A DNA stretch of 64,000 nt from contig CAZUBI010000001.1 in NCBI GenBank assembly GCA_964618625.1, forward strand, positions 254,930 to 318,929. The letters run 5' to 3'. A program made the translations under genes and the position numbers. Source of the DNA: an uncultured Candidatus Saccharibacteria bacterium (GTDB lineage Bacteria > Patescibacteriota > Minisyncoccia > UBA6257). The notes under the pieces are model-generated. The model saw only the letters and a list, made by a program, of their open reading frames with translations, ran no database searches and was not told where the DNA came from. Within the stretch, counting starts at the first letter, position 1; each line of letters starts with the position of its first letter. Positions 4,563-62,175 of the stretch are shown piece by piece.

Positions 4563-4976
4563 TTAGATGTCAAAAAGAATTATTGCCTTCCAATCACCAT
4601 TTTTGTCTTGATTGATATTTAATTGATGATAAGTTGCGGCTTTTATTTCTTTAGAAAATTCTTTCACATTTCTGCCTTCTATTATTCCTTTTATAGAATT
4701 ATCTGTTAATTTTTCTATTTTTACCTTGTCAAAAATGCAATTATAAATATCTGATTTTGCTAAAACTTCATTTAAAAAATCCACCAAGAGCGCGTTGATA
4801 TCCAAAGAATGAATTTCTATTTGTTCTTTCTTCAAAACACTCTTTTGAAAAACATTTGGCTCAATAATATAAGTCATTCCTTCCAAAGCCCCTCTAAAAA
4901 TATCTTCTTTGCAAGAGGCTGTTATTTCTAATCTAATATCTGCTGGATGAGATAAAACCTTGTATTTATAACTCAT
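4563..4976 (-). CDS. archease (RtcB activator)
   Basis: 137 aa; HPADIRLEITASCKEDIFRGALEGM N-terminal motif; lies immediately downstream of rtcB. Confidence 0.7.
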   Translation of the reverse strand: MSYKYKVLSHPADIRLEITASCKEDIFRGALEGMTYIIEPNVFQKSVLKKEQIEIHSLDINALLVDFLNEVLAKSDIYNCIFDKVKIEKLTDNSIKGIIEGRNVKEFSKEIKAATYHQLNINQDKNGDWKAIILFDI

Positions 4977-10828: not shown

Positions 10829-13723
10829 ATGAAAGACTTCGCCAAAAAAAGGGAGGAAAAAATTAAAGCTCTTTGGCAAGAATCAAAAGAAAGAGAAGCG
10901 CAAAGGCTGGCTGAAAAACACAATTTTCTTTATGTTGACTTAAGAAAAGCGCCAATTGAAACAAGCGCTCTTTCTATAATCCCAGAAGAAGAAGCAAGAA
11001 AAACTAATATTATTGCTTTCCAAAAAATAGGAAATCAAATTAAATTAGCTGTTTTAGACCCATTTAACGCTGAAACAATAAGAACAATTGAAAAAATCAA
11101 AAAAGAAAGATATAAAGTTGCCGTTTTTGTTGTTACTGAGGAAAGCCTTAATTGGGCATGGAAAAATTATGCTTTTGTCCATGAGCACCAAAAAGAATTA
11201 TCAAATTTTATAGAAATAACTGACACTAAGTCAATTGAATTTTCCGATCTTCATCAAGAACTTTTACCCCTTCCCATAGAAGAAGTCACTTCATTAGTCT
11301 CGCTTATTTTAAAATCAGCTGTTGAAATAGACGCCTCTGACATTCATATTGAACCGCAGGAAGATTACGCTCTTGTTCGTTTTCGTGTGGACGGTGTCTT
11401 ATATGATGTTTCTGAAATAGAAAAAAAGAAACACCGCGGCATTAATCAAAGATTAAAGCTTCTGTCTGGTTTAAAATTAAATATTGAAAATATTTCCCAA
11501 AATGGCAGATTTACTATCCAAAATAATAAAAGTTTTATTGATGTCCGCGCTTCCAGCTTACCAGGTCCTCATGGAGAATTTTTAGTATTCAGGCTCTTAA
11601 ACCCCAAACGAGCCGCTTTTGGTTTAAAAGATTTAGGTATTGACCAAAAAAGTATAGATGTTTTTAATCATTCTTTATCAGCACCAAATGGAATGATTTT
11701 AATCACAGGACCTACAGGTTCAGGAAAAACAACTACTTTATACGCTTTTTTAAAAAAGAAGATTTCCCCAGGAATAAAAATTATCACAATTGAAGACCCA
11801 ATTGAATATCGGCTTGTTGGTGTAAACCAAACTCAGACATCAAAAAAATATGGTTTTGCTAATGGATTAAAATCCATTCTCCGACAAGATCCTGATGTCC
11901 TTATGATTGGCGAAATGAGAGATGAGGAAACAGTAAAAACCGCTATACAGGCTTCTTTAACCGGACATTTGGTCTTTTCTACACTCCATACAAATGAAGC
12001 CAGCGGCACTATTGCCAGACTGGTTGAATTAGGCGCTGACGTCCAAATGCTTCCAAATGCGCTTAAATTAGTTGTGGCGCAAAGATTAATTCGACGCCTT
12101 TGTCCTGATTGTAAAGAAAAATACCAACCAACTCCTGAAATGAAAGAAAGATTAATTGAGGCTTTTAGCATTCTCTCTCCAAAAAGTGGAGTAAAAATAC
12201 CGAAAAATATTCCATGTCTTTATAAATCAAAAGGCTGCGCAAAATGCCATTGGCTGGGATATAAAAGCCAGATTGGAATTTTTGAATACTTTAATATAAG
12301 TCCAAAAATTATTAAAACAATCAAATCCGACGCTGACCAAAATGAAATAAGATCGAAAGCCATTGATGAAGGAATGGTGCCTCTTTTTCATGACGGTCTA
12401 TTGAAAACTATTGAAGGCATTACTTCTTTGGAAGAAGTTATGAGAGTGGCAGGTGATATTTCCTATATCCAGGAATTATATAAAGAATTATTTTCTCAGG
12501 TTTTGACTCGAGGCGTAAAAGTAAGCAGCAAAGAAGAAAAGAAAATAGAAGAATTGCTTCAAAAGAATAAATCAATTTCCCCATTACTAAAAGATAAATC
12601 TTCTGAAAGGCAAATTGCCATTATTTTAGCTACTGCATTAAAATCACGAGCCACAGATGTTCACTTTGAACCAGAAGAAAAAACCAGTGAAATTAGGGAA
12701 AGAATTGACGGAGTGCTCCATAAATTAGTTTCTTTTGATATCAACGAGCATCCTAAATTAATTAATGAATTAAAAGCCCTCAGCGGTTTAAAAACAGAGG
12801 AAACGCAAACAATTCAAGAAGGAAGATTCCGGCTTATTCTTCCTGATGAATCTTTTGACCTCAGGCTTTCAATAATTCCAGGCGGATATGGGGAAAGCGC
12901 CTCCTTAAGAATCTTGGGCGGAGAAGAATCTTTATTAAATTTAGAAAGCTTGGGATTTTTAAAAGAACAGGAAGAAGAAATAGAAAAAGTATTAGAAAAA
13001 AAAGTCGGATTAATTTTAGCTGCCGGGCCTACTTCTTCGGGAAAAACCACAACTCTATTTACAATACTTAAAAAACTTGCCAAGCCAGATGTAAAAGTGA
13101 TTACTGTTGAAGACCCTATTGAATATCGTTTACCTGGAATTATGCAAACTCAAGTTAATGAGGAAAAAGGATATACTTTTTCCAAAGTCCTTCGAAGTTT
13201 GCTTCGCCAAAACCCTAACATTTTCCTAATTGGAGAAATTAGGGACAAAGAAACAGCTAAATTAGTCTGGCAGGCGTCTACAACAGGGCATTTAGTTCTG
13301 TCCACTATTCATACAAATGACGCTTTAGGCGTTTTATCTCGTCTACAGAGTTTAGAAATACCTTCAAAAGAATTGGTGCCTGCTATTAACACTATTGTTG
13401 CGCAACGATTAGTCCGTTGCCTTTGCCCTCATTGTAAAAAAGAAATAAAAATTCCATCAGAAATGTCCAAATTTATCAAACCATCCTTAAAATATTTCCC
13501 AAAATACAAAAAACCGATAAAAATTTACCAAGCTCAAAGTTGCGCCAAATGTAGTTTTACTGGATATAAAGGCCAATCAGGAATATTTGAAATACTTATA
13601 CCGCCTTCAAAAACAAAAGATCTTACAAAAGTAAAATTTTCAAAATTAATTAACAGCGCTGTTATTAAAGTTTTACAGGGAATTACCTCATGGGAGGAAA
13701 TAAAAAGAGTGCTTGGAGTATAA
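10829..13723 (+). CDS. type II/IV secretion (GspE/PilB-family) ATPase with two tandem ATPase cores
   Basis: 964 aa; T2SSE_N-like N-terminus. Two full cores, each with Walker A (GPTGSGKTTTLYAFL / GPTSSGKTTTLFTIL), Asp box, His box (FSTLHTNEA / LSTIHTNDA) and tetracysteine motif (CPDC..CAKC / CPHC..CAKC). Confidence 0.85.
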   Translation: MKDFAKKREEKIKALWQESKEREAQRLAEKHNFLYVDLRKAPIETSALSIIPEEEARKTNIIAFQKIGNQIKLAVLDPFNAETIRTIEKIKKERYKVAVFVVTEESLNWAWKNYAFVHEHQKELSNFIEITDTKSIEFSDLHQELLPLPIEEVTSLVSLILKSAVEIDASDIHIEPQEDYALVRFRVDGVLYDVSEIEKKKHRGINQRLKLLSGLKLNIENISQNGRFTIQNNKSFIDVRASSLPGPHGEFLVFRLLNPKRAAFGLKDLGIDQKSIDVFNHSLSAPNGMILITGPTGSGKTTTLYAFLKKKISPGIKIITIEDPIEYRLVGVNQTQTSKKYGFANGLKSILRQDPDVLMIGEMRDEETVKTAIQASLTGHLVFSTLHTNEASGTIARLVELGADVQMLPNALKLVVAQRLIRRLCPDCKEKYQPTPEMKERLIEAFSILSPKSGVKIPKNIPCLYKSKGCAKCHWLGYKSQIGIFEYFNISPKIIKTIKSDADQNEIRSKAIDEGMVPLFHDGLLKTIEGITSLEEVMRVAGDISYIQELYKELFSQVLTRGVKVSSKEEKKIEELLQKNKSISPLLKDKSSERQIAIILATALKSRATDVHFEPEEKTSEIRERIDGVLHKLVSFDINEHPKLINELKALSGLKTEETQTIQEGRFRLILPDESFDLRLSIIPGGYGESASLRILGGEESLLNLESLGFLKEQEEEIEKVLEKKVGLILAAGPTSSGKTTTLFTILKKLAKPDVKVITVEDPIEYRLPGIMQTQVNEEKGYTFSKVLRSLLRQNPNIFLIGEIRDKETAKLVWQASTTGHLVLSTIHTNDALGVLSRLQSLEIPSKELVPAINTIVAQRLVRCLCPHCKKEIKIPSEMSKFIKPSLKYFPKYKKPIKIYQAQSCAKCSFTGYKGQSGIFEILIPPSKTKDLTKVKFSKLINSAVIKVLQGITSWEEIKRVLGV

Positions 13724-27089: not shown

Positions 27090-28073
27090 TTAATTGGTAG
27101 TTGTGGTAACTCCTGGCGGTGGTGTTTTTGGTAAACGCCCTTTAGGAATTTTTGGGGTTGGTATTGGCAATGCTTTCATAATATTTTCTATAGTGCTGGT
27201 GGCAAAACCTTGTTTTTCTAAAACCTGAACGCTTTGCTGTACCCTATTTTTCAATTTTTCTTTCAACTGCTCTGCTTTAGCCTGAACATGGTCTGAGTAA
27301 TCCCCTAAATTCGTTTGCTGAAGTTGTTCTTGTATACTATTCATTATTCGCAATTGTCGAAATTCTCCAGCTGGCGCAGATTTTAAAGGCTGTAGTTCCT
27401 GTAATTTATTTTCCAAACGATTCATAAACTCTTCCTGATTTTCAAATTTTAAACGAAGAAGGGGTAAGGTTTGATTAATGTTTTGACGAATTCTTTCAAC
27501 TTGAACAACAACTTCTGGGACTTTTTCTAAAATCCTATCTAAAACTTCTGAGTGACGAATCTCAGCTTCTGTGACTTTATCAAGAAGTTTGTCTATATTC
27601 GGATTTTCCGAAGTTTCTTTTAAGCTCTCCATCCTATCTCTTAATCTACTCATTGCGTTTGTATAATTATCAAACGCTTTTTCTAAAACTTCCTGCTTTG
27701 GAGCTTTTTGAGCTATTGCTTCTGCCTCAGCTAATTTTTCTGAAAGTATCTGCAATTGTACTTCACTCTTTTTTATTGGATCTCTAGTCCACCCTACTTT
27801 TAAACCTCTCCACCATTCTTTCAAAAAATAAAAAGGACTAGTAGGAAGTAACCCTACTCTTTTTAATCCTAAGGCTTTTGGAACAGAAAGTTCTTCTTCC
27901 TCTGGTAAAGTTGTTGTAGTTGTATCAACAATCGTAGTGGTCGTAGCATCTCCAACCGTAGTTGTTGTAGCATCAATAACAGTAGTTGTGGTTGTTTCTT
28001 CAGCAAATATTAAATTTACAGAAACTCCGCTAATTAAACCACAAAGAAATAAACCTAAAATTATTTTTTTCAT
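27090..28073 (-). CDS. secreted Thr-rich protein with DUF5667-like domain
   Basis: signal peptide; TTTT repeats; PTSPFYFLKEW motif also present in the 43966..45858 protein. Confidence 0.45.
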   Translation of the reverse strand: MKKIILGLFLCGLISGVSVNLIFAEETTTTTVIDATTTTVGDATTTTIVDTTTTTLPEEEELSVPKALGLKRVGLLPTSPFYFLKEWWRGLKVGWTRDPIKKSEVQLQILSEKLAEAEAIAQKAPKQEVLEKAFDNYTNAMSRLRDRMESLKETSENPNIDKLLDKVTEAEIRHSEVLDRILEKVPEVVVQVERIRQNINQTLPLLRLKFENQEEFMNRLENKLQELQPLKSAPAGEFRQLRIMNSIQEQLQQTNLGDYSDHVQAKAEQLKEKLKNRVQQSVQVLEKQGFATSTIENIMKALPIPTPKIPKGRLPKTPPPGVTTTTN

Positions 28074-37638: not shown

Positions 37639-38295
37639 ATGAATTTTATTGAAGTTATCAAACCGCAATTTTTTATTGAAACGCCTATTGACGGTGGAGA
37701 AATCCTAGAAAGAATTGAACGTTTTGGTAGAATATCTCATAAAAGCGAAGATAAAATAGAAGCTGGAACTGCTGAAATTTTCATAAAAAAGCTTTTGGAA
37801 ATGGGGCATGAAAGTGTATTAGAGCATGTAAGTATCTCCGCTAGATTTATCTGTGATAGGGGTGTTTCTCATGAATTAGTCAGACATCGAATTGCTGCTT
37901 ATACGCAGGAGTCAACACGTTATTACAATTATTCAGGGGCTATCAAATTTATAAAACCTTTGTTTTATAAAGAAGGGACTAAAAATTATCAAATCTGGTA
38001 TCAATCTTGTTTAGCATCAGCTGACACCTATAGAATATTAATAATACAAGGAAGTAAACCAGAAGAGGCAAGAAGTGTACTACCCAATTCTCTAAAAACA
38101 GAAATTGTTAGCACTTTCAATTTAAGACAGTGGAGACATGTTTTAAAAATGCGCTGTAATATCAACGCCCATCCACAGATAAGAGAGATAATGATTCCTA
38201 CTCTCAAAAGATTTCAAAAAGAAATTCCTATTATTTTCGATGACTTAATTATTGAGAAAAATCAAAGTCTCTCATTCCCTTTCTATACTACTTAA
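37639..38295 (+). CDS. thyX: flavin-dependent thymidylate synthase
   Basis: ThyX signature RHRIAAYTQESTRY (RHR...S.RY); 218 aa; RBS GGAGGTG upstream. Confidence 0.75.
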   Translation: MNFIEVIKPQFFIETPIDGGEILERIERFGRISHKSEDKIEAGTAEIFIKKLLEMGHESVLEHVSISARFICDRGVSHELVRHRIAAYTQESTRYYNYSGAIKFIKPLFYKEGTKNYQIWYQSCLASADTYRILIIQGSKPEEARSVLPNSLKTEIVSTFNLRQWRHVLKMRCNINAHPQIREIMIPTLKRFQKEIPIIFDDLIIEKNQSLSFPFYTT

Positions 38296-38317
38296 TTTAA
38301 ATCAACGAATTTAAATT

Positions 38318-38352
38318 AAAACCGCCCTGTGGAAAATTCCCGGGGCGTTTTT
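38318..38352. terminator. bidirectional terminator between thyX and rplK
   Basis: cgccc-tgt-ggaaAAttcc-c-gggcg followed by TTTTT. Confidence 0.6.
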
Positions 38353-38382
38353 ATGTACCTATTATATATCTCTGTTATATAT

Positions 38383-38808
38383 TTATTTTTCTATTTCTAT
38401 ACCCATACTTCTCGCTGTTCCTTCCACCATTTTCATAGCCGCTTCTATGTCTGTTGTATTCAAATCAGGCATTTTCCTTTTAGCAATTTCTTCTACCTGC
38501 TTTTTTGTAATCTTTCCAACTTTATCCTTTAAAGGATTACCAGCTCCTTTTTGTATCCCTGCTGCTTTGCGTAATAAATCAGAGACTGGCGGTTGTTTAA
38601 ATTTTAAATCAAAACTTCTGTCTTGATAAACTGTAATTTCTACAGGAATGATATCTCCAGCTTGATCTTTTGTCTTTTCATTGAATCGCGTGCAAAATTC
38701 CTGAATATTTAAACCGTGCTGACCTAAAGCAGGACCAACAGGTGGAGCAGGGTTAGCCTGTCCAGCAGGAATCTGTAAAATTAAAGTTGTTTTTATTACT
38801 TTTCCCAT
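38383..38808 (-). CDS. rplK: 50S ribosomal protein L11
   Basis: [22 protein letters not shown]. Confidence 0.93.
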
Positions 38809-38819
38809 ATTTAAATATT

Positions 38820-39365
38820 TTAATCTTTTTTAACTTGAAGAAAGTCTAAATCTACCGGAGTATCTCTTCCAAATAGAGACACTAATACTTTAACTCTTCC
38901 CCTTTCGTGGTCTATTTCATCCACTTTCCCTTGTTTGTCTTTAAAAGGTCCGTCAATAATAGTAACTAAATCTCCTTCTGTAAAATCTATTTTGTATTTT
39001 GGCTCTTCCTCCCCCGTTTTTTTTAAAATATTCTTTATCTCGTCGTCTTGGACAGGACGAGGAGTTGTCCCTGCTCCAATAAAACCTGTCACCATTGGGG
39101 TATTTCTTACAACATACCACGAATCATCAGTAACAATCATTTCAACAAAAACATAGCCTGGATATATTTTTTCTTCAACAACAGCGCGCTTACTATGCTT
39201 TATTTTTATTTTTTTCTCTTTAGGCACTAAAACATTAAAAATCTTATCCTGCATCTGTAAAGACTCAACTCTTTGTTTTAAACTCCGAGCTACCGCGTCT
39301 TCATATCCAGAATAAGTATGAATTACATACCAGTTTCTTCCTAAATTTATCTGCTGTTTTGGCAT
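38820..39365 (-). CDS. nusG: transcription termination/antitermination factor NusG
   Basis: NGN domain [11 protein letters not shown] plus C-terminal [21 protein letters not shown]. Confidence 0.9.
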
Positions 39366-39398
39366 AAATCAATTAACAATAAAGAATTAATACAAATA

Positions 39399-39629
39399 TC
39401 ATTTAATAAGAGTGCTCATGGCACGCATGAATCCAAAATCAATAAGCCCAAGAATAATAGCAACAGTGAAAGAAAGCCCAAGAACACCCAAAGTATAACG
39501 TATTGTTTCTTTACGCGTAGGCCAATTTACTTTCTTTAATTCTTGAATAGCTCCTTTAAAATACCTTTTTATATTTTTCATTTTTTTCTTTTTAAAAATG
39601 CCCCAAAGGGCACTTTTATAGTCTATCAC
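39399..39629 (-). CDS. secE: preprotein translocase subunit SecE
   Basis: 76 aa; VNWPTRKET + single TM. Confidence 0.85.
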   Translation of the reverse strand: MIDYKSALWGIFKKKKMKNIKRYFKGAIQELKKVNWPTRKETIRYTLGVLGLSFTVAIILGLIDFGFMRAMSTLIK

Positions 39630-43965: not shown

Positions 43966-45858
43966 TTAATCCTGGAATTCGGGTAGCTTTATCTCAACTT
44001 TGGCCTCTTTTCTTAAGTTTTTAAGTAAATTAGATCTCATAGTCCATGTCTTCTGTTCAGTAAGGGTCTTTTTGATTTCTTCTCTTGCCAGTTCAAGGTT
44101 GGGTTCCTGAGCCGGCTTTTTCTCTTCAACTTTAATAATGTGATAACCATAAGGTGTTTTTACTACTTCACTAATCTCTCCCGCCTCAAGAGCAAAAACG
44201 GCTTTTTCAAAATTAGGTGTCATCTTGCCTCGAGAAAAAAAGCCAAGGTCTCCGGCCTTATCTTTTGTACCAGGATCTATTGATTCCCTCCTAGCCAGCT
44301 CCGTAAAATCTGTTCCGTCTTTCAACTGGCTTAAAACCGCTTTAGCTTCTTCTTCTGTTCTGACCAAAATATGAGATGCCCTCACCTCTTCCAGCTTGGC
44401 AAAATTAGTCTTGTATCTTTCAAAATAATCCTTGATTTCTTGTTCAGTAACAGTTACTTTACTGGCAACAATTTTTTCCGTTAAAATTTGCAGTTCAACT
44501 TGCCGCCTTAACTCCTCAGTAGTCATACCCACTTCAGAAAGCTTTTCCGCAGTAACTTTAAGTTCATCTATTTTTTTATCAATTTCTTCCGACCTCACTA
44601 CTATATTTTGTTCTTTTGCTTTTTGCTCAATGATAATTTCGATAATCATAAATTCAAGGACGCCTTCACCAACAAGAGGTATAAATCTCTGAACAAATTC
44701 ATCCTCTGTCTCCTCAGCTTTCTGCCATGTGGCGACTTGCCTCATTTGGGATTCATTACTTTGGATATAAATCCAAAGTCTCTGAATAAATTCATCCTTA
44801 GTGATTTCTACACCATTGACTATTGCTGCCACATCTTCCTTGCCTTCCGTAGCCTTGGCAGAGGAGGATTTTTCTTCCTCAATTTTAGAAACTTCCTCCC
44901 CGGCTTCTTTTAATTCTATAAATTTGAAGCTTTTGTAAAATAATTCAAATTTATCGTCTTTGATAGCTCCATTGCCAATGCGAAATACCCTTCCATTATG
45001 TTCTACTATTATTGATTCAGAGTACCAATCAGGGTATTGCGACGGAGTAACAATAATTTTGAGCGCTTGAATATTATTCAACCTAATACTTTCTCTTTCT
45101 TCAAAACGACCCGTTTCATAAAATTGCCTACCAATTTCACTAATGACTTCGTCTTTTGACTTTTGAGAACTATCATAAAACCAAAGTCCCCACAAGATAT
45201 CTTCTCTTATTTCTTGTGGCGCTACACCTATTCCATTTTCAAAATCCACCCTTCTCCAATCACTCGGATATTTAATAGTGTATCCCACTTTAGAATCAAT
45301 AAATATTTGCCAATCAATTGTTTTTATTGTTTGCTGTAATTCTTCCTTTTTTGCTCCAGTTACTGCTTGGACAGCTTCTTCTGAACCCTTTCTTGAAACC
45401 TCCATTGCCTTTTTGATAGCTGGCTTGGCCTCCTCAGGAACTTTTTCAAATACTTCTGCCAATATTTCTTGATGCTTTAAAGTTTTTTCAGTAATTAAAA
45501 TTGCTAATTCCTCAATGTCCTTTCCTTTGTTTTGAGCGTCTTGAGTTTTTATGTTAGCTAACCCTAAAAATTCTTGATATTTCTTATTGGCTTTCTCCAA
45601 AGCCTTGATTTGATTCTTTTCTGCCATTGCCATTACCTCGGCTAATTTCTCTTCAGCATATTTTAATGCTTTCTCAGCTTTCTTTTCAACTCGAAAAGTA
45701 AAAAACATTCCTATTCTTTCACCCAAAGTATCAAGAAAATAAAATGGGCTGTCAGGAGTAAGACCTGGATCTGGTAATTCTATCCCCTGAGCCAAAACCT
45801 CTGCTCCAAAAGAAAGAATTAAAAATAGTAATGTTGTTAATAAAATTATTTTTCTCAT
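43966..45858 (-). CDS. parvulin-type peptidyl-prolyl isomerase (PrsA/SurA-like) with N-terminal DUF5667-like domain
   Basis: C-terminal rotamase HILV...GDLGFFSRGKM...GYHIIKV; N-terminal PDSPFYFLD motif shared with 27090..28073. Confidence 0.7.
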   Translation of the reverse strand: MRKIILLTTLLFLILSFGAEVLAQGIELPDPGLTPDSPFYFLDTLGERIGMFFTFRVEKKAEKALKYAEEKLAEVMAMAEKNQIKALEKANKKYQEFLGLANIKTQDAQNKGKDIEELAILITEKTLKHQEILAEVFEKVPEEAKPAIKKAMEVSRKGSEEAVQAVTGAKKEELQQTIKTIDWQIFIDSKVGYTIKYPSDWRRVDFENGIGVAPQEIREDILWGLWFYDSSQKSKDEVISEIGRQFYETGRFEERESIRLNNIQALKIIVTPSQYPDWYSESIIVEHNGRVFRIGNGAIKDDKFELFYKSFKFIELKEAGEEVSKIEEEKSSSAKATEGKEDVAAIVNGVEITKDEFIQRLWIYIQSNESQMRQVATWQKAEETEDEFVQRFIPLVGEGVLEFMIIEIIIEQKAKEQNIVVRSEEIDKKIDELKVTAEKLSEVGMTTEELRRQVELQILTEKIVASKVTVTEQEIKDYFERYKTNFAKLEEVRASHILVRTEEEAKAVLSQLKDGTDFTELARRESIDPGTKDKAGDLGFFSRGKMTPNFEKAVFALEAGEISEVVKTPYGYHIIKVEEKKPAQEPNLELAREEIKKTLTEQKTWTMRSNLLKNLRKEAKVEIKLPEFQD

Positions 45859-50935: not shown

Positions 50936-50962
50936 GATTGAACTCTAGTTTCTCTTAAGCTA

Positions 50963-50993
50963 TTCACCAAAAAATCGCCTCTTTGACGATTCT
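50963..50993. repeat. repeated hairpin, copy 6 (degenerate)
   Basis: tcaccaaaaaatcgcctctttgacgattct. Confidence 0.7.
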
Positions 50994-50999
50994 AATTTG

Positions 51000-51071
51000 C
51001 TGCGGGACTTGGACTCGAACCAAGATCTTCTCCTCCAAGGGGAGACGTGACTACCATTGCACCATCCCGCA
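51000..51071 (-). tRNA. tRNA, probably Gln(TTG); unusual C at position 33
   Basis: hand-folded cloverleaf: acceptor TGCGGGA/TCCCGCA, T-arm CTTGG-TTCGAGT-CCAAG, anticodon arm TCTCC-CCTTGGA-GGAGA. Confidence 0.5.
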
Positions 51072-51800
51072 ATTTTTATAAATACCTTCAATCCATCCTT
51101 GAATCTTTCGATTCAAATTTATGCTTTTCTTCACAGAAATCCTAATTAATCCAAAATAATCTTTGCCAACATTTTTCCGATGAGTATTAATTTTGTTCTT
51201 TTTCCAAATTATTTTTTGAAAATCTTTTATAGGAAAACCTGTAGCTCTAGACCAATATTGTTGTACTTTTTTCAATTTATGCCGAGCCGTTACATGAAGA
51301 TAAATACGAACATTAATTTCTGATTTCGGTATTTTACAAATTTCATAAAGCCATTCTAAAAATATCTTTATTAAATATGGATCTGAATTTCCTAATTGAA
51401 CTAAACTTCCATTCAATTTTTCTTTACTGCCTTCCCCCCAATACAAAGCTGTACCAATCATCCATAAATCTCTTTCGCTAATATTCTTTATTTCATTTAT
51501 CGCTTCTTTTTTTATTTTCTTTGTAATAATCCTTTTTTGGTTTTTTCTTGCAAGGGCTCCGCGAAGCGCAGCTGATAATTTCTTTTTTGTTAATCTCTGT
51601 TTTTGTCTTTTACTTAACCCAACGCTTCTCAACCATAAAGACAATGTTGATTTGGCAACAGGAACTTTTTCTAATATTTCGGAATAAGAAAAGCCTCTCT
51701 TACGAAGCTTAATAGCTAATTCCTTTTCTTTATATTTTAATATCATCTGAACCACTATTAGTATTACTCTAATTATACTATCATGGTTCGATATTGTCAA
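51051..51800 (-). CDS. HTH + LAGLIDADG-like motif protein (putative free-standing homing-endonuclease-like), paralog of 57974..58603
   Basis: N-terminal HTH (ELAIKLRKRGFSYSEILEKV); ALYWGEGSK resembles LAGLIDADG (..GfiDGEGs); 3' end overlaps the tRNA 5' end by ~20 nt. Confidence 0.45.
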   Translation of the reverse strand: MTISNHDSIIRVILIVVQMILKYKEKELAIKLRKRGFSYSEILEKVPVAKSTLSLWLRSVGLSKRQKQRLTKKKLSAALRGALARKNQKRIITKKIKKEAINEIKNISERDLWMIGTALYWGEGSKEKLNGSLVQLGNSDPYLIKIFLEWLYEICKIPKSEINVRIYLHVTARHKLKKVQQYWSRATGFPIKDFQKIIWKKNKINTHRKNVGKDYFGLIRISVKKSINLNRKIQGWIEGIYKNCGMVQW

Positions 51801-51829: not shown

Positions 51830-52738
51830 TTAAACTTTAAGATATTTATTCATTGCCCAGAAGCTGGATACTATTCCTAAGAATATACCAAATAGTGTTT
51901 GATATAGAAGAATATACCAAAAATGCGACCAAAAATACAGACTCATGCTTATTTCAGCAATAAAAGATTCTACTCTAGGGCTACCCCACATAACAAGAGG
52001 GATTAAGATTAAAATCGCAACAAAAGAAGCGATTATGCCCTGAAGCGCTCCTTCTAAAAGAAATGGACCGCGAATAAACCAATTAGAAGCTCCAACTAAT
52101 TTCATTATTTCAATCTCGCCTTTTAGAGAATAAATTGCCATGCGAATCGTGTTAAAACTAATAAGAAGACTCAAAAACGCTGCAATAAGGATAACTAAAA
52201 TAGAGCCTAATTTTATTCCCACTGATAAAGCGTTAATCCTTTCAATCACTCTCTGGTTTTCCATTAAATCTACTGTAATTAATTTCTCTTTAAAAACTGA
52301 ATTATTAATGTCATCAATAATTTCTGTATAATATTTTGTGTCTTTAGCTTTGATATTTAGAGAAGCGGCTAAAGGATTTTCCCCTAATTCTTCCAATGCT
52401 CTTTTTATAGTCGGATTTCTGCTACTTTTTTCTTCAAAAATTTTCAATGCTTCATCTTGGGATATATATTCAATTTTAGCAATTTTTTCACTGCCTATAA
52501 GATCATCGCGAATTCTTAAAATATCTTCTTCTGGAACATCTCTTTTAAAATAAATGCTAATATCCATCTTTTCTTTCAAAATATTAATAAGATTATTGCT
52601 AGCATCATTAAATATTAAAATTGAACTTAAAATAATCAAACTGATAGTCAGCATTACTATGCAAGTAAAAGAAAGCCAATTGTTTCTAACTAACCCTTGC
52701 CAAGCTGTGCGAAAAACTCTTTTTATTAGAATAAACAT
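51830..52738 (-). CDS. ftsX: cell-division permease FtsX
   Basis: 302 aa; 4 TM with large periplasmic loop; follows ftsE. Confidence 0.8.
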   Translation of the reverse strand: MFILIKRVFRTAWQGLVRNNWLSFTCIVMLTISLIILSSILIFNDASNNLINILKEKMDISIYFKRDVPEEDILRIRDDLIGSEKIAKIEYISQDEALKIFEEKSSRNPTIKRALEELGENPLAASLNIKAKDTKYYTEIIDDINNSVFKEKLITVDLMENQRVIERINALSVGIKLGSILVILIAAFLSLLISFNTIRMAIYSLKGEIEIMKLVGASNWFIRGPFLLEGALQGIIASFVAILILIPLVMWGSPRVESFIAEISMSLYFWSHFWYILLYQTLFGIFLGIVSSFWAMNKYLKV

Positions 52739-52781: not shown

Positions 52782-53465
52782 TTATATAAGATATTTTCCT
52801 TCCTCTTCATCACGAATAATTTTTCCTTTATCCAAGCTGATAACCCTTTTCTCTAAAGTATTTATTACCTCTTTATCATGAGTGGCTAAAATTATAGATG
52901 TGCCGAGTTCATTAATCTTCATTAAAAGTTTTATAATCTCCCATGTATTAATCGGATCTAAATCCCCTGTAGGCTCATCCGCTAATATTAACTCTGGTCT
53001 TTGAGCCAAAACGCGGCATATAACCACCCTTTGTTTTTCTCCAGCAGAAAGTTGATGTGAAAAATTATTCGCTTTTTCCTCTAGACCTACTAGTTTTAAT
53101 AATTCAGGAGCGTCTTTTTTTATTGCTTGCTCAGAATAACCAGCCACTTCCATGGCAAAAGTCACATTTTCATAAGCTGTTCTATTAGCTAATAATCTGA
53201 AGTCCTGAAATACCATCCCAATCTTCCGTCTAAGAAAAGTTACTTCTCTGGGTTTAAATTTATTAATATCCTTATCGTCAAAAAAAATTCTCCCTTTGGT
53301 TGGAAGCTCTTCTTTTATCAACATTTTTAAAATTGTCGTTTTTCCTACTCCTGATCTTCCTACTAAAGAAACAAATTCTCCTGATTTTACTTCAAAAGTA
53401 ATATTATCCAAAATTAAAGAACCGTTATAAGCCTTTGAAACATTTTTAAAATAAACTAATGGCAT
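52782..53465 (-). CDS. ftsE: cell-division ATP-binding protein FtsE
   Basis: Walker A GRSGVGKTT, ABC signature LSAGEKQR, Walker B ILADEPTG. Confidence 0.88.
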   Translation of the reverse strand: MPLVYFKNVSKAYNGSLILDNITFEVKSGEFVSLVGRSGVGKTTILKMLIKEELPTKGRIFFDDKDINKFKPREVTFLRRKIGMVFQDFRLLANRTAYENVTFAMEVAGYSEQAIKKDAPELLKLVGLEEKANNFSHQLSAGEKQRVVICRVLAQRPELILADEPTGDLDPINTWEIIKLLMKINELGTSIILATHDKEVINTLEKRVISLDKGKIIRDEEEGKYLI

Positions 53466-53467
53466 AA

Positions 53468-54220
53468 CTAAAAATTTAAAATTTTATCTAAATTTCCATC
53501 TAGCACCTCATTAACATTACCTATTTTTTTACCAGTGAGATGATTCTTTACTAATTTATAAGGATGAAGGACATAAGAACGAATCTGATTACCCCATTCA
53601 ATTTTTATTTTTTCGCCCTTTAATTCTTTCAAAGTTTTTACTTTCTGTTTCTCAGCTAATTGATGAAGTTTAGCCCTTAAAACAGTCAAAGCTTTTTCTT
53701 TGTTCTTAAACTGCGATCTTCCTTCCTGGCAACCAACAACTATCCCAGTAGGCTTATGGCGTACCCTTACAGCTGTTTCCACCTTTTGAACATTTTGCCC
53801 GCCTGGACCTGAAGAACGAAAAGTCTCAATTTCTAAATCGCTTTCTTCTAATGGAAGTTCTTTCGCCTCAATAATCGGCAAAACCTCCACTAAAGCAAAA
53901 GAGGTGTGGCGAAGTTTAGCAGAAGAAAAAGGAGAAATTCTTACCAAACGATGTACACCATTCTCATTTTTTAAAATTCTATAAACATCATCTCCGCCTA
54001 TCTCTGCAATAGCGTTTTTAATGCCGCCATATTCATTTTCTCTCTTGTCTAATAATGAAAATCTCCAATTTTTCCTTTCTGAATATTTCTGATACATCTT
54101 TAAAAGCATCAAAGTCCAATCTTCGGCATCTTGACCGCCAGCACCGGCATACACAGAAAGTGTTATATTATTTCCTCTAGGCATCCTGAGAATTTTACCA
54201 AATTTAGGCCTGAAAAACAA
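53468..54220 (-). CDS. prfB: peptide chain release factor 2 homologue lacking N-terminal domain 1
   Basis: SPF tripeptide (RISPFSS), GGQ (SSGPGGQNVQKVETAVR); TTG start; in-frame stop 10 codons upstream; only 24 nt from pcm. Confidence 0.7.
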   Translation of the reverse strand: MFFRPKFGKILRMPRGNNITLSVYAGAGGQDAEDWTLMLLKMYQKYSERKNWRFSLLDKRENEYGGIKNAIAEIGGDDVYRILKNENGVHRLVRISPFSSAKLRHTSFALVEVLPIIEAKELPLEESDLEIETFRSSGPGGQNVQKVETAVRVRHKPTGIVVGCQEGRSQFKNKEKALTVLRAKLHQLAEKQKVKTLKELKGEKIKIEWGNQIRSYVLHPYKLVKNHLTGKKIGNVNEVLDGNLDKILNF

Positions 54221-54243
54221 CTTATAAAAATAAATTTTATTCT

Positions 54244-54882
54244 TTATTCTTTATCAGTAATTAAAGGAACAAAGGTAAATCCTTGAAAACGCTTAATATC
54301 AAATTCATTTTCCGCTTTTTTTATCCAAAGTTGTACTTCTCCATTAAGAGGAGTAACTATTCTTCCGCCTGTTTTTAATTGTTTCAGCCAATCTTTAGGA
54401 ACTTCACTTACTGCAGCTGAACAAAGAATCTTATCAAACAGAACTTCCTTTTCATAACCTTTAGAGCCGTCAGCGCAAATAAATTCTACGATGCCTTTTT
54501 TTATAAAATTGTATTTTGCTACGTTTCTTTCTCCAAATTCTTTTAATTCAGGAATTCTTTCTATAGCAATTACTTTTCCTTCGGGTTTTTGACTTACAAT
54601 ATAACCCAAAAGAGCACTTGTCCATCCAGAACCAGCGCCAATATCCAAAATCTTTTCTCCTGCTTGCGGCTGAAGAAGCTCTAATATAAATGCCACTGTA
54701 AGGGGCTGGGAAATAGTCTGTCCAAAACCAATCGGTAATGGAATATTTGAATAAGTATCATCTTTATACTTAGAAACTACAAAATTCTTTCTATCAATAG
54801 CAAAAAATGCCTCTATAATATGAGGGGATTTTAAATAACCTGAATCAATAATTTCCTGAACAAGATCTTCTTTTGATAACAT
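54244..54882 (-). CDS. pcm: protein-L-isoaspartate O-methyltransferase
   Basis: GQTISQPLTVAFILELL; SAM motif ILDIGAGSGW. Confidence 0.85.
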   Translation of the reverse strand: MLSKEDLVQEIIDSGYLKSPHIIEAFFAIDRKNFVVSKYKDDTYSNIPLPIGFGQTISQPLTVAFILELLQPQAGEKILDIGAGSGWTSALLGYIVSQKPEGKVIAIERIPELKEFGERNVAKYNFIKKGIVEFICADGSKGYEKEVLFDKILCSAAVSEVPKDWLKQLKTGGRIVTPLNGEVQLWIKKAENEFDIKRFQGFTFVPLITDKE

Positions 54883-54934
54883 TATTAATAGTTCTAACCA
54901 ATTATATCATAAAAAATTCTTTAAAATCAGAAAT

Positions 54935-61128: not shown

Positions 61129-62175
61129 ATGAAATTAGAAAAATTAGAAAAAGAAAAAGAAAATCTTTTTAAGAAACTCGGTAGCCCTGAGTTTCTTTCA
61201 AATAAAAAGAATTTTGAAGAAGCTTCCCGTAAATTGAAAAAAATTGAAGGCGAGATAAATTTTCTTAAAACACTCGCAAAAACAGAGAAAAAGATAAAAG
61301 AAGCTAAAGAAATTTTAGCTGAGGCGACTGATGATGAACTTTTGTCTTTGGCAGAAGAAGATTTAAAAAAGAATAAACAATTAAAAGAAAAGATTTTAGC
61401 AGAAAAGGCAAAAAAATTGGAAGAAAACAATAATGCATCTGTGATTAAAGGCATTGTGGTGGAGATTAGGGCTGGAACTGGAGGCGAAGAAGCGGCATTA
61501 TTCGCTCATAACTTATTCAGAATGTATAATCGATATGCTGAAAACAAAGGATGGCCAATTAAAATTATTAATATGAATAAAACGGCATTAGATGGCTTAA
61601 AAGAAGGAGTAATGGAAATAAATAATAAAGAATCTTTTGAAAACCTAAAATACGAAGCTGGTGTGCATCGAGTTCAAAGAATACCATTTACTGAAAAATC
61701 TGGACGTATTCACACTTCTACAGCAACAGTAGCCATTCTTCCTCAAGTAAAAAATATAAAGATAGAAATCAAGACAGAGGATTTAGAAGAAACATTTTTT
61801 CGTTCTTCGGGTCCAGGCGGACAAAACGTCCAAAAAGTAGAAACAGCAGTGCGTATTATACACAAACCTACAGGCATAGTAGTTACCTGCCAAAGCGAAA
61901 GACAGCAAAAACAAAACAGGGAAAAAGCTTTGGAATTCCTAAAAAATAAAGTTTTTAATAAAAAGCAAAAGGAGGCGATAGGAAAAACAGAAAAAGAAAG
62001 ACGCGACCAAATAGGTCGCGCCGAGAGATCAGAAAAAATTCGTACTTATAATTTTCCACAGGATCGTATCACTGACCATCGTATTAAAAAATCCTGGCAT
62101 AATATTGAACAAGTCCTCAATGGAAATTTAGATGAAATAATTAGAGATATTAAAAAGGAATATCATCAGGAATAA
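61129..62175 (+). CDS. prfA: peptide chain release factor 1
   Basis: GGQ (SSGPGGQNVQKVETAVR); tripeptide region RIPFTEKSGRIHTS (PFT instead of PA/VT). Confidence 0.88.
   Translation: MKLEKLEKEKENLFKKLGSPEFLSNKKNFEEASRKLKKIEGEINFLKTLAKTEKKIKEAKEILAEATDDELLSLAEEDLKKNKQLKEKILAEKAKKLEENNNASVIKGIVVEIRAGTGGEEAALFAHNLFRMYNRYAENKGWPIKIINMNKTALDGLKEGVMEINNKESFENLKYEAGVHRVQRIPFTEKSGRIHTSTATVAILPQVKNIKIEIKTEDLEETFFRSSGPGGQNVQKVETAVRIIHKPTGIVVTCQSERQQKQNREKALEFLKNKVFNKKQKEAIGKTEKERRDQIGRAERSEKIRTYNFPQDRITDHRIKKSWHNIEQVLNGNLDEIIRDIKKEYHQE

Follow-up and report, generated by a model that had tools for sequence, protein, structure and literature searches.

In the window, by which the whole 64-kb stretch of DNA analyzed here is meant (about 12% of the roughly 533-kb genome), release factor RF2 is encoded by a prfB gene that lacks domain 1 altogether. 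We consider it very likely that this gene is the canonical prfB, most probably the source of the only class-I factor for UGA and UAA, and that its domain 1 was deleted in the ancestor of a large Paceibacteria/Parcubacteria clade. The positions of the features discussed are listed in Table 1.

The family and the extent of the loss were established with profile searches. The protein was matched by Pfam over positions 100 to 194 of the 194-position PCRF profile and over the entire RF-1 domain. The NCBIfam model for prfB, TIGR00020, was matched from position 116 to 349 of 353, so that about 115 N-terminal positions are missing, which bears out the first-pass annotation in its claim of an RF2 homologue without the whole of domain 1 that keeps SPF and GGQ. 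The score of 327.4 bits lies below the TIGR00020 cut-off of 370 bits because profile positions 1 to 115, which correspond to domain 1, are missing, yet RF2 is by far the best family, as the same protein reached 229 bits with prfA, 102.2 bits with PrfH and 50.8 bits with ArfB.

The remaining part of the protein is strongly conserved. When 50 truncated and full-length sequences were aligned, 56 columns proved invariant, including the Ser and Phe of SPF (S84 and F86), the RHTSF loop (R92, H93, T94, S95, and F96), GGQ and the IRSY region. Just four clade-specific substitutions part the truncated RF2 proteins from 91 full-length ones. The residue after SPF is Ser in 84 of the 85 truncated proteins and Asp or Asn in 82 of the 91 full-length RF2 proteins, suggesting that some change in decoding properties is possible. 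The other three are Gln in place of Asn after GGQNV, K220 in place of Glu and I235 in place of Phe. An AlphaFold2 model of the window protein (pLDDT, 85.3; pTM, 0.82) found its best matches in free RF2 of Thermus thermophilus and Escherichia coli (2ihr and 1gqe; TMq, 0.83 to 0.84; 41 to 46% identity), and comparison with ribosome-bound RF2 gave E-values down to 1.7e-27. On this model, the protein has the RF2 fold.

The prfB open reading frame starts with TTG, as the first-pass annotation had it, and encodes 250 amino acids up to a TAG stop at 53468..53470; it lies on the minus strand, which that annotation had left unstated. A public gene call (P0001), 100% identical to the window RF2, uses the downstream ATG and has 238 amino acids. 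Domain 1 is missing with either start. An in-frame stop is present upstream of the TTG, at 11 codons rather than the 10 previously given, and the pcm stop is as close as claimed, with the spacing corrected from 24 to 23 nt (59 nt from the ATG). The pcm gene itself is complete and scored 169 bits with TIGR00080 (cut-off, 159 bits). As only 23 nt separate the TTG from a complete pcm, domain 1 does not fit in any frame, in agreement with the earlier claim. A profile of RF2 domain 1, built from nine full-length Patescibacteria RF2 proteins, likewise gave no match when run on six-frame translations of the whole 64 kb, and it did detect the positive-control loci L005 and L089.

The classical +1 frameshift site was also reported to be lacking, and this was confirmed. 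A programmed +1 frameshift (CTT TGA) near codon 26 is common in prfB, if not universal. Within 53400..54900, no in-frame CTT TGA site was present at the window prfB. Three CTTTGA strings occur in this interval, all within prfB, which is open throughout, and an offset check placed the string at 54114 out of frame.

Table 1. Positions of the features discussed, given in the window unless a locus is named
Feature	Position	Strand	Evidence or remark
RtcB RNA ligase with intein, 983 aa	1606..4557	minus	Intein_splicing at residues 109-617
Archease	4563..4976	minus	directly 5' of RtcB
rplK (L11)	38383..38808	minus	N-terminal and RNA-binding domains both present
ftsX	51830..52738	minus	closes the conserved prfB-ftsE-ftsX block
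ftsE	52782..53465	minus	begins 2 nt past the prfB stop
prfB without domain 1 (RF2 domains 2-3-4 only)	53468..54220	minus	ORF list, Pfam, TIGR00020
GGQ catalytic motif (GGC GGG CAA)	53795..53803	minus	G128, G129, and Q130 invariant in 50 sequences
SPF tripeptide (RF2 'anticodon')	53927..53935	minus	sequence; conserved S84, P85 (at least 90%), F86
Alternative prfB start, ATG	54182..54184	minus	238-aa form in public gene calls (P0001)
Spacer between pcm stop and prfB TTG	54221..54243	minus	23 nt; no CTT TGA frameshift site
pcm (protein-L-isoaspartate O-methyltransferase)	54244..54882	minus	complete, 212 aa
prfA (RF1, 348 aa, with its own domain 1)	61129..62175	plus	NF001859, 400 bits, profile 1-344 of 347
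RF2 variant, locus L022	L022:9908-10669		
RF2 variant, locus L029	L029:9845-10711		
RF2 variant, locus L039	L039:7840-8796		
RF2 variant, locus L021	L021:2-868		
RF2 variant, locus L062	L062:97-1026		

The short gene occupies the place of a canonical prfB. The closest full-length relative is a 367-amino-acid RF2 (P0088; GCA_040753135.1), which is 63% identical to the window RF2 over the shared part and is encoded by a contiguous 1,104-nt open reading frame without a frameshift site. At its locus (L005), this gene stands in the arrangement PCMT-prfB-ftsE-ftsX, as in the window. The same arrangement at L089 holds a classical frameshifted prfB (CTT TGA C). The block prfB-ftsE-ftsX follows the short prfB in every clade member examined (the window, L001 to L004, L086, L088, L092, and L093). 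The shared pcm-prfB-ftsE-ftsX position indicates that the short gene is the positional orthologue of canonical prfB.

A pcm (PCMT) gene directly 5' of prfB was thus seen in three lineages of the CPR (in the window, at L005:3158-3898, and at L089:2657-3640), and this pairing holds whether RF2 is truncated, full-length or frameshifted. The PCMT of L089 has 327 amino acids, with a long N-terminal extension. On the other side of the block, a 249-amino-acid open reading frame without a family match adjoins ftsX in the window (50960..51800, minus strand). A 43-amino-acid open reading frame overlapping it reads '…GWCNGSHVSPWRRRSWFESKSRSK…' and resembles a spurious translation of a putative tRNA gene.

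The observation made on one gene by the first-pass annotation extends to related genomes. In a collection of 5.8 billion proteins, about 87 clusters were found that are 63 to 100% identical to the window RF2 and share its short N terminus, with lengths of 234 to 258 amino acids, a few obvious fragments excepted. Their proteins start 12 to 25 residues ahead of the AGAGG motif, which opens domain 2. The source labels of this clade are Paceibacterota, Pacebacteria, Parcubacteria, Minisyncoccia or Patescibacteria. The truncated proteins form one clade, apart from the longer RF2 proteins, in a neighbor-joining tree, which fits one ancestral deletion; the sister lineage has the 367-amino-acid RF2 at the same locus. 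The short prfB lies behind the same pcm on contigs from four independent samples. The gap upstream of the short gene is 45 to 183 nt in L086 and L088 and 620 nt in L093. Domain 1 was not found with the domain-1 profile in ten loci of the truncated clade and their flanks, and the 620-nt gap of L093 held no domain-1 remnant. This gap (L093:9382-10000) is noncoding, without an annotated gene, and contains imperfect repeats of about 30 nt (…AAATCCTTCGC(T/C)T(C/A)CG…TCAGG…).

In a representative library clustered at 50% identity, the truncated clade is collapsed and is missing among the best matches, the top match there being a 348-amino-acid protein with 60% identity. Three RF2 calls of 247 to 255 amino acids (P0098, P0100, and P0110) fall outside the truncated clade. 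All three were candidates for further truncations. For P0100 this was rejected, as its locus, L089, carries the frameshifted prfB called from an internal start: the 360-nt gap after PCMT holds an open reading frame, ORF0, that ends in CTT TGA C, and the +1 frame runs into the called gene. P0098 and P0110 group with P0100 and are presumed to be the same kind of miscall.

To our knowledge, domain 1 of class-I release factors is kept almost everywhere, including lineages reported to be without RF3, such as Thermus. It is also kept in RF1 of the organisms studied here. The prfA gene of the window lies about 7 kb from prfB, downstream of rpmE. Three more genomes of the truncated clade encode full-length RF1 proteins of 358, 350, and 353 amino acids on the same contigs as short RF2 proteins of 245, 249, and 243 amino acids, so that RF1 is full-length in all four truncated-clade genomes examined. 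Ribosomal protein L11 is the partner of RF domain 1 on the ribosome, and its gene in the window is intact. A full-length RF1 together with an intact L11 indicates that the loss of domain 1 is specific to RF2. The proposal of a streamlined termination system therefore stands for RF2 but not for the system as a whole. TGA terminates 12 of the 63 nonoverlapping open reading frames of the window, among them long genes and several at 4-nt gene overlaps, so UGA serves as a stop codon and the organism needs RF2 activity. Among the window open reading frames scanned with Pfam and NCBIfam, which represent part of 12% of the genome, no EF-G-like GTPase of a possible RF3 kind was found.

The tripeptide of RF1 is usually PAT or PVT. 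The PFT of the window RF1 might have pointed to a changed specificity, but this reading was rejected: relatives have PAT (L092), PTT (L091) or PET (L048), and the middle residue appears simply variable.

An RF2-like protein without domain 1 could instead be a paralogue of the PrfH, ArfB or rescue type with stalled or damaged ribosomes as its substrate, a full-length prfB then lying elsewhere in the genome. A PrfH/ArfB-like paralogue was the counter-case named in the first-pass annotation, and we regard it as very unlikely. PrfH (RFH; TIGR03072), the rescue factor associated with RtcB2, does resemble the window protein in having domains 2 to 4 and GGQ without domain 1 (PMC1586002), but its decoding residues are altered, whereas the window protein has kept both SPF and the recognition loop of RF2 intact, and the 102 bits reached with the PrfH model fall short of its cut-off of 166.65 bits. 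The window does contain an RtcB gene, the sole one in this 12% of the genome. It lies 50 kb from prfB, with archease as its partner, the pairing seen in tRNA-ligase modules, whereas rtcB2 and prfH are adjacent in RtcB2-PrfH operons; the upstream neighbor of prfB is pcm. ArfB (ICT1) shares the GGQ catalytic domain and has about 140 amino acids, with a basic C-terminal tail and no codon-recognition domains, which the window RF2 has. The ArfB model, NF006718, matched the GGQ stretch only (residues 120 to 155; 50.8 bits; cut-off, 100 bits). Moreover, the window gene is a prfB orthologue by position, sitting in the ancestral slot in which sister lineages have a full-length prfB, and a genome of about 0.5 Mb is unlikely to carry paralogues.

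A split gene, with domain 1 encoded separately and joining RF2 in trans, seems highly improbable. Domain 1 forms a helical bundle that is flexible and autonomous (PMC1586002), and 12% of the genome was seen; however, a profile able to detect its positive controls found no domain-1-like open reading frame in the window, nor in the sequence flanking ten related loci. The graded shrinkage to about 45 amino acids and the independent complete losses in other CPR lineages, described below, argue for erosion and not for relocation. There is hardly any chance that the gene is a pseudogene remnant or an artefact of annotation or assembly, such as a miscalled frameshifted prfB. Miscalls from internal starts of +1 frameshift genes exist, as checked for P0100 and presumed for P0098 and P0110, but in the window the upstream gene ends 23 nt away and leaves no hidden N-terminal coding sequence. 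The identical arrangement recurs in four independent samples, and about 87 clusters have an intact open reading frame, with 56 invariant columns. Conservation and the upstream gene boundary effectively refute this explanation.

Published data on domain 1, RF3, and L11 make a minimal yet canonical RF2 the best-supported reading. Domain 1 is the least conserved domain of release factors (PMC1586002). According to the account of Mora et al. (2003) in PMC1586002, it is dispensable in vitro for codon recognition and hydrolysis and required to stimulate nucleotide exchange on RF3; E. coli RF1 and RF2 without it keep codon-specific release and lose their action on RF3, and truncated RF1 works in vivo. 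Those constructs carry the same deletion, made in the laboratory, whereas the deletion described here was fixed by evolution in a large clade and in RF2 only. RF3 itself is dispensable in E. coli and missing from Thermus, Thermotoga, Chlamydiales, and spirochaetes, and RF2 can dissociate via spontaneous intersubunit rotation (bioRxiv 10.1101/600445). On ribosomes without L11, RF1 is inactive and RF2 more active, as Tate et al. (1984) are quoted by a reviewer in PMC1586002. The retention of domain 1 in RF1 may reflect this reported L11 dependence, which is that of RF1 and not of RF2.

From these data, we infer that the window gene is probably the sole copy and that its product would function as RF2, independently of RF3. 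The part lost is the N-terminal three-helix domain 1, and the codon-recognition superdomain (domains 2 and 4, with SPF and the RHTSF loop) and catalytic domain 3 (GGQ) are retained. The minimal RF2 would bind the A site and read U(A/G)A via SPF. It would then open so that GGQ reaches the peptidyl-transferase center, and peptidyl-tRNA would be hydrolyzed as by full-length RF2. Contact with the L11 stalk and recycling by RF3 are not expected, and the factor would probably depart from the ribosome spontaneously upon intersubunit rotation. The deletion of domain 1 would also have taken the classical +1 frameshift site, and with it this kind of autoregulation. Expression is probably from a tight operon, pcm-prfB-ftsE-ftsX, and the UAG that ends the gene would be read by RF1.

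Compared with canonical RF2 (TIGR00020; 1gqe, 2ihr, and 4v5e), the window RF2 shares domains 2 to 4, SPF, GGQ, RHTSF, the fold, and the locus as found in sister CPR lineages. It differs in the absence of domain 1 (about 115 residues) and of the +1 frameshift site, in Ser for Asp or Asn after SPF, and in a shorter C-terminal tail. The bacterial forms without the N-terminal domain treated by Burroughs and Aravind (PMC6514570) are PrfH and ArfB. In the searchable literature, a coverage outside which subscription journals lie, we found no account of a naturally occurring RF2 that lacks domain 1.

Other members of the CPR have RF2 genes at different stages of reduction. Genome contigs were scanned with motifs from the RF2 alignment (PGGQNV[QN]K and GVHRLVR[IL]SP), and the matches listed were at most 56% identical. 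Among these, 36 of the 41 RF2 loci, which come from across bacteria, are open for 97 codons or more ahead of the shared region, indicating that domain 1 is present, and the remaining five are all CPR or CPR-like. In L029 (Saccharibacteria) and L022 (Kiruna2 bin), RF2 starts 14 to 26 residues before AGAGG and is without domain 1; L022 has SPY in place of SPF. In L039 (Saccharibacteria), L021 (Paceibacterota), and L062 (Patescibacteria), the domain is reduced to about 45 amino acids around the PDFW helix. The RF2 genes of L022, L029, and L039 follow a tRNA-Thr(CGU) gene, in the first two directly.

In the representative library, most RF2 proteins have 90 to 135 residues before AGAGG, and short forms are a minority. 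The latter include four 'mini' RF2 proteins (P0221, P0152, P0263, and P0137) and the 85-residue form of P0101, which nests among full-length relatives. In a small, crude neighbor-joining tree, these reduced proteins fall in several separate positions, which suggests that in Patescibacteria domain 1 of RF2 has been eroded repeatedly and step by step. We find it rather likely that a minimal RF2 is the sole UGA factor of a class-level CPR clade in which RF1 keeps domain 1, with erosion having proceeded repeatedly and in stages in other Patescibacteria.

The natural deletion from RF2 and not from RF1 in a large clade, along with the partial and complete losses that arose independently elsewhere in the CPR, constitutes a series of evolutionary knock-outs. 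The series favors the idea that cells can terminate at UGA and UAA without domain 1, and it indicates that RF1 and RF2 are asymmetric in this respect, in keeping with the older L11 data. If a minimal RF2 is indeed the sole UGA factor, termination at UGA in these organisms would by its nature depend neither on RF3 nor on the L11 stalk, and RF1 and RF2 would differ genuinely in their use of domain 1 in vivo. As the laboratory deletion was already active in vitro, the natural loss is noteworthy rather than shocking. A compact RF2 of about 240 amino acids may be useful for biochemical and structural work.

The truncation also has consequences for annotation. The score below the TIGR00020 cut-off leads to the name 'PCRF domain-containing protein' for these proteins at NCBI, and with such a score and a generic name, pipelines may count prfB as missing. 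This would skew completeness estimates and could raise a false suspicion of stop-codon reassignment.

Several other genes of the window showed unusual features. The secE-nusG-rplK cluster (37639..39629) is followed by thyX, which is encoded on the opposite strand, and not by rplA (L1), indicating that L1 is encoded elsewhere or missing. A T2SSE/PilB-type ATPase of 964 amino acids (10829..13723, plus strand) is unusually long, with two profile stretches, and may be a tandem fusion. DUF5667 was detected in two proteins encoded on the minus strand (27090..28073 and 43966..45858), in one of them (630 amino acids) as a fusion with SurA-like and PPIC-type rotamase domains.
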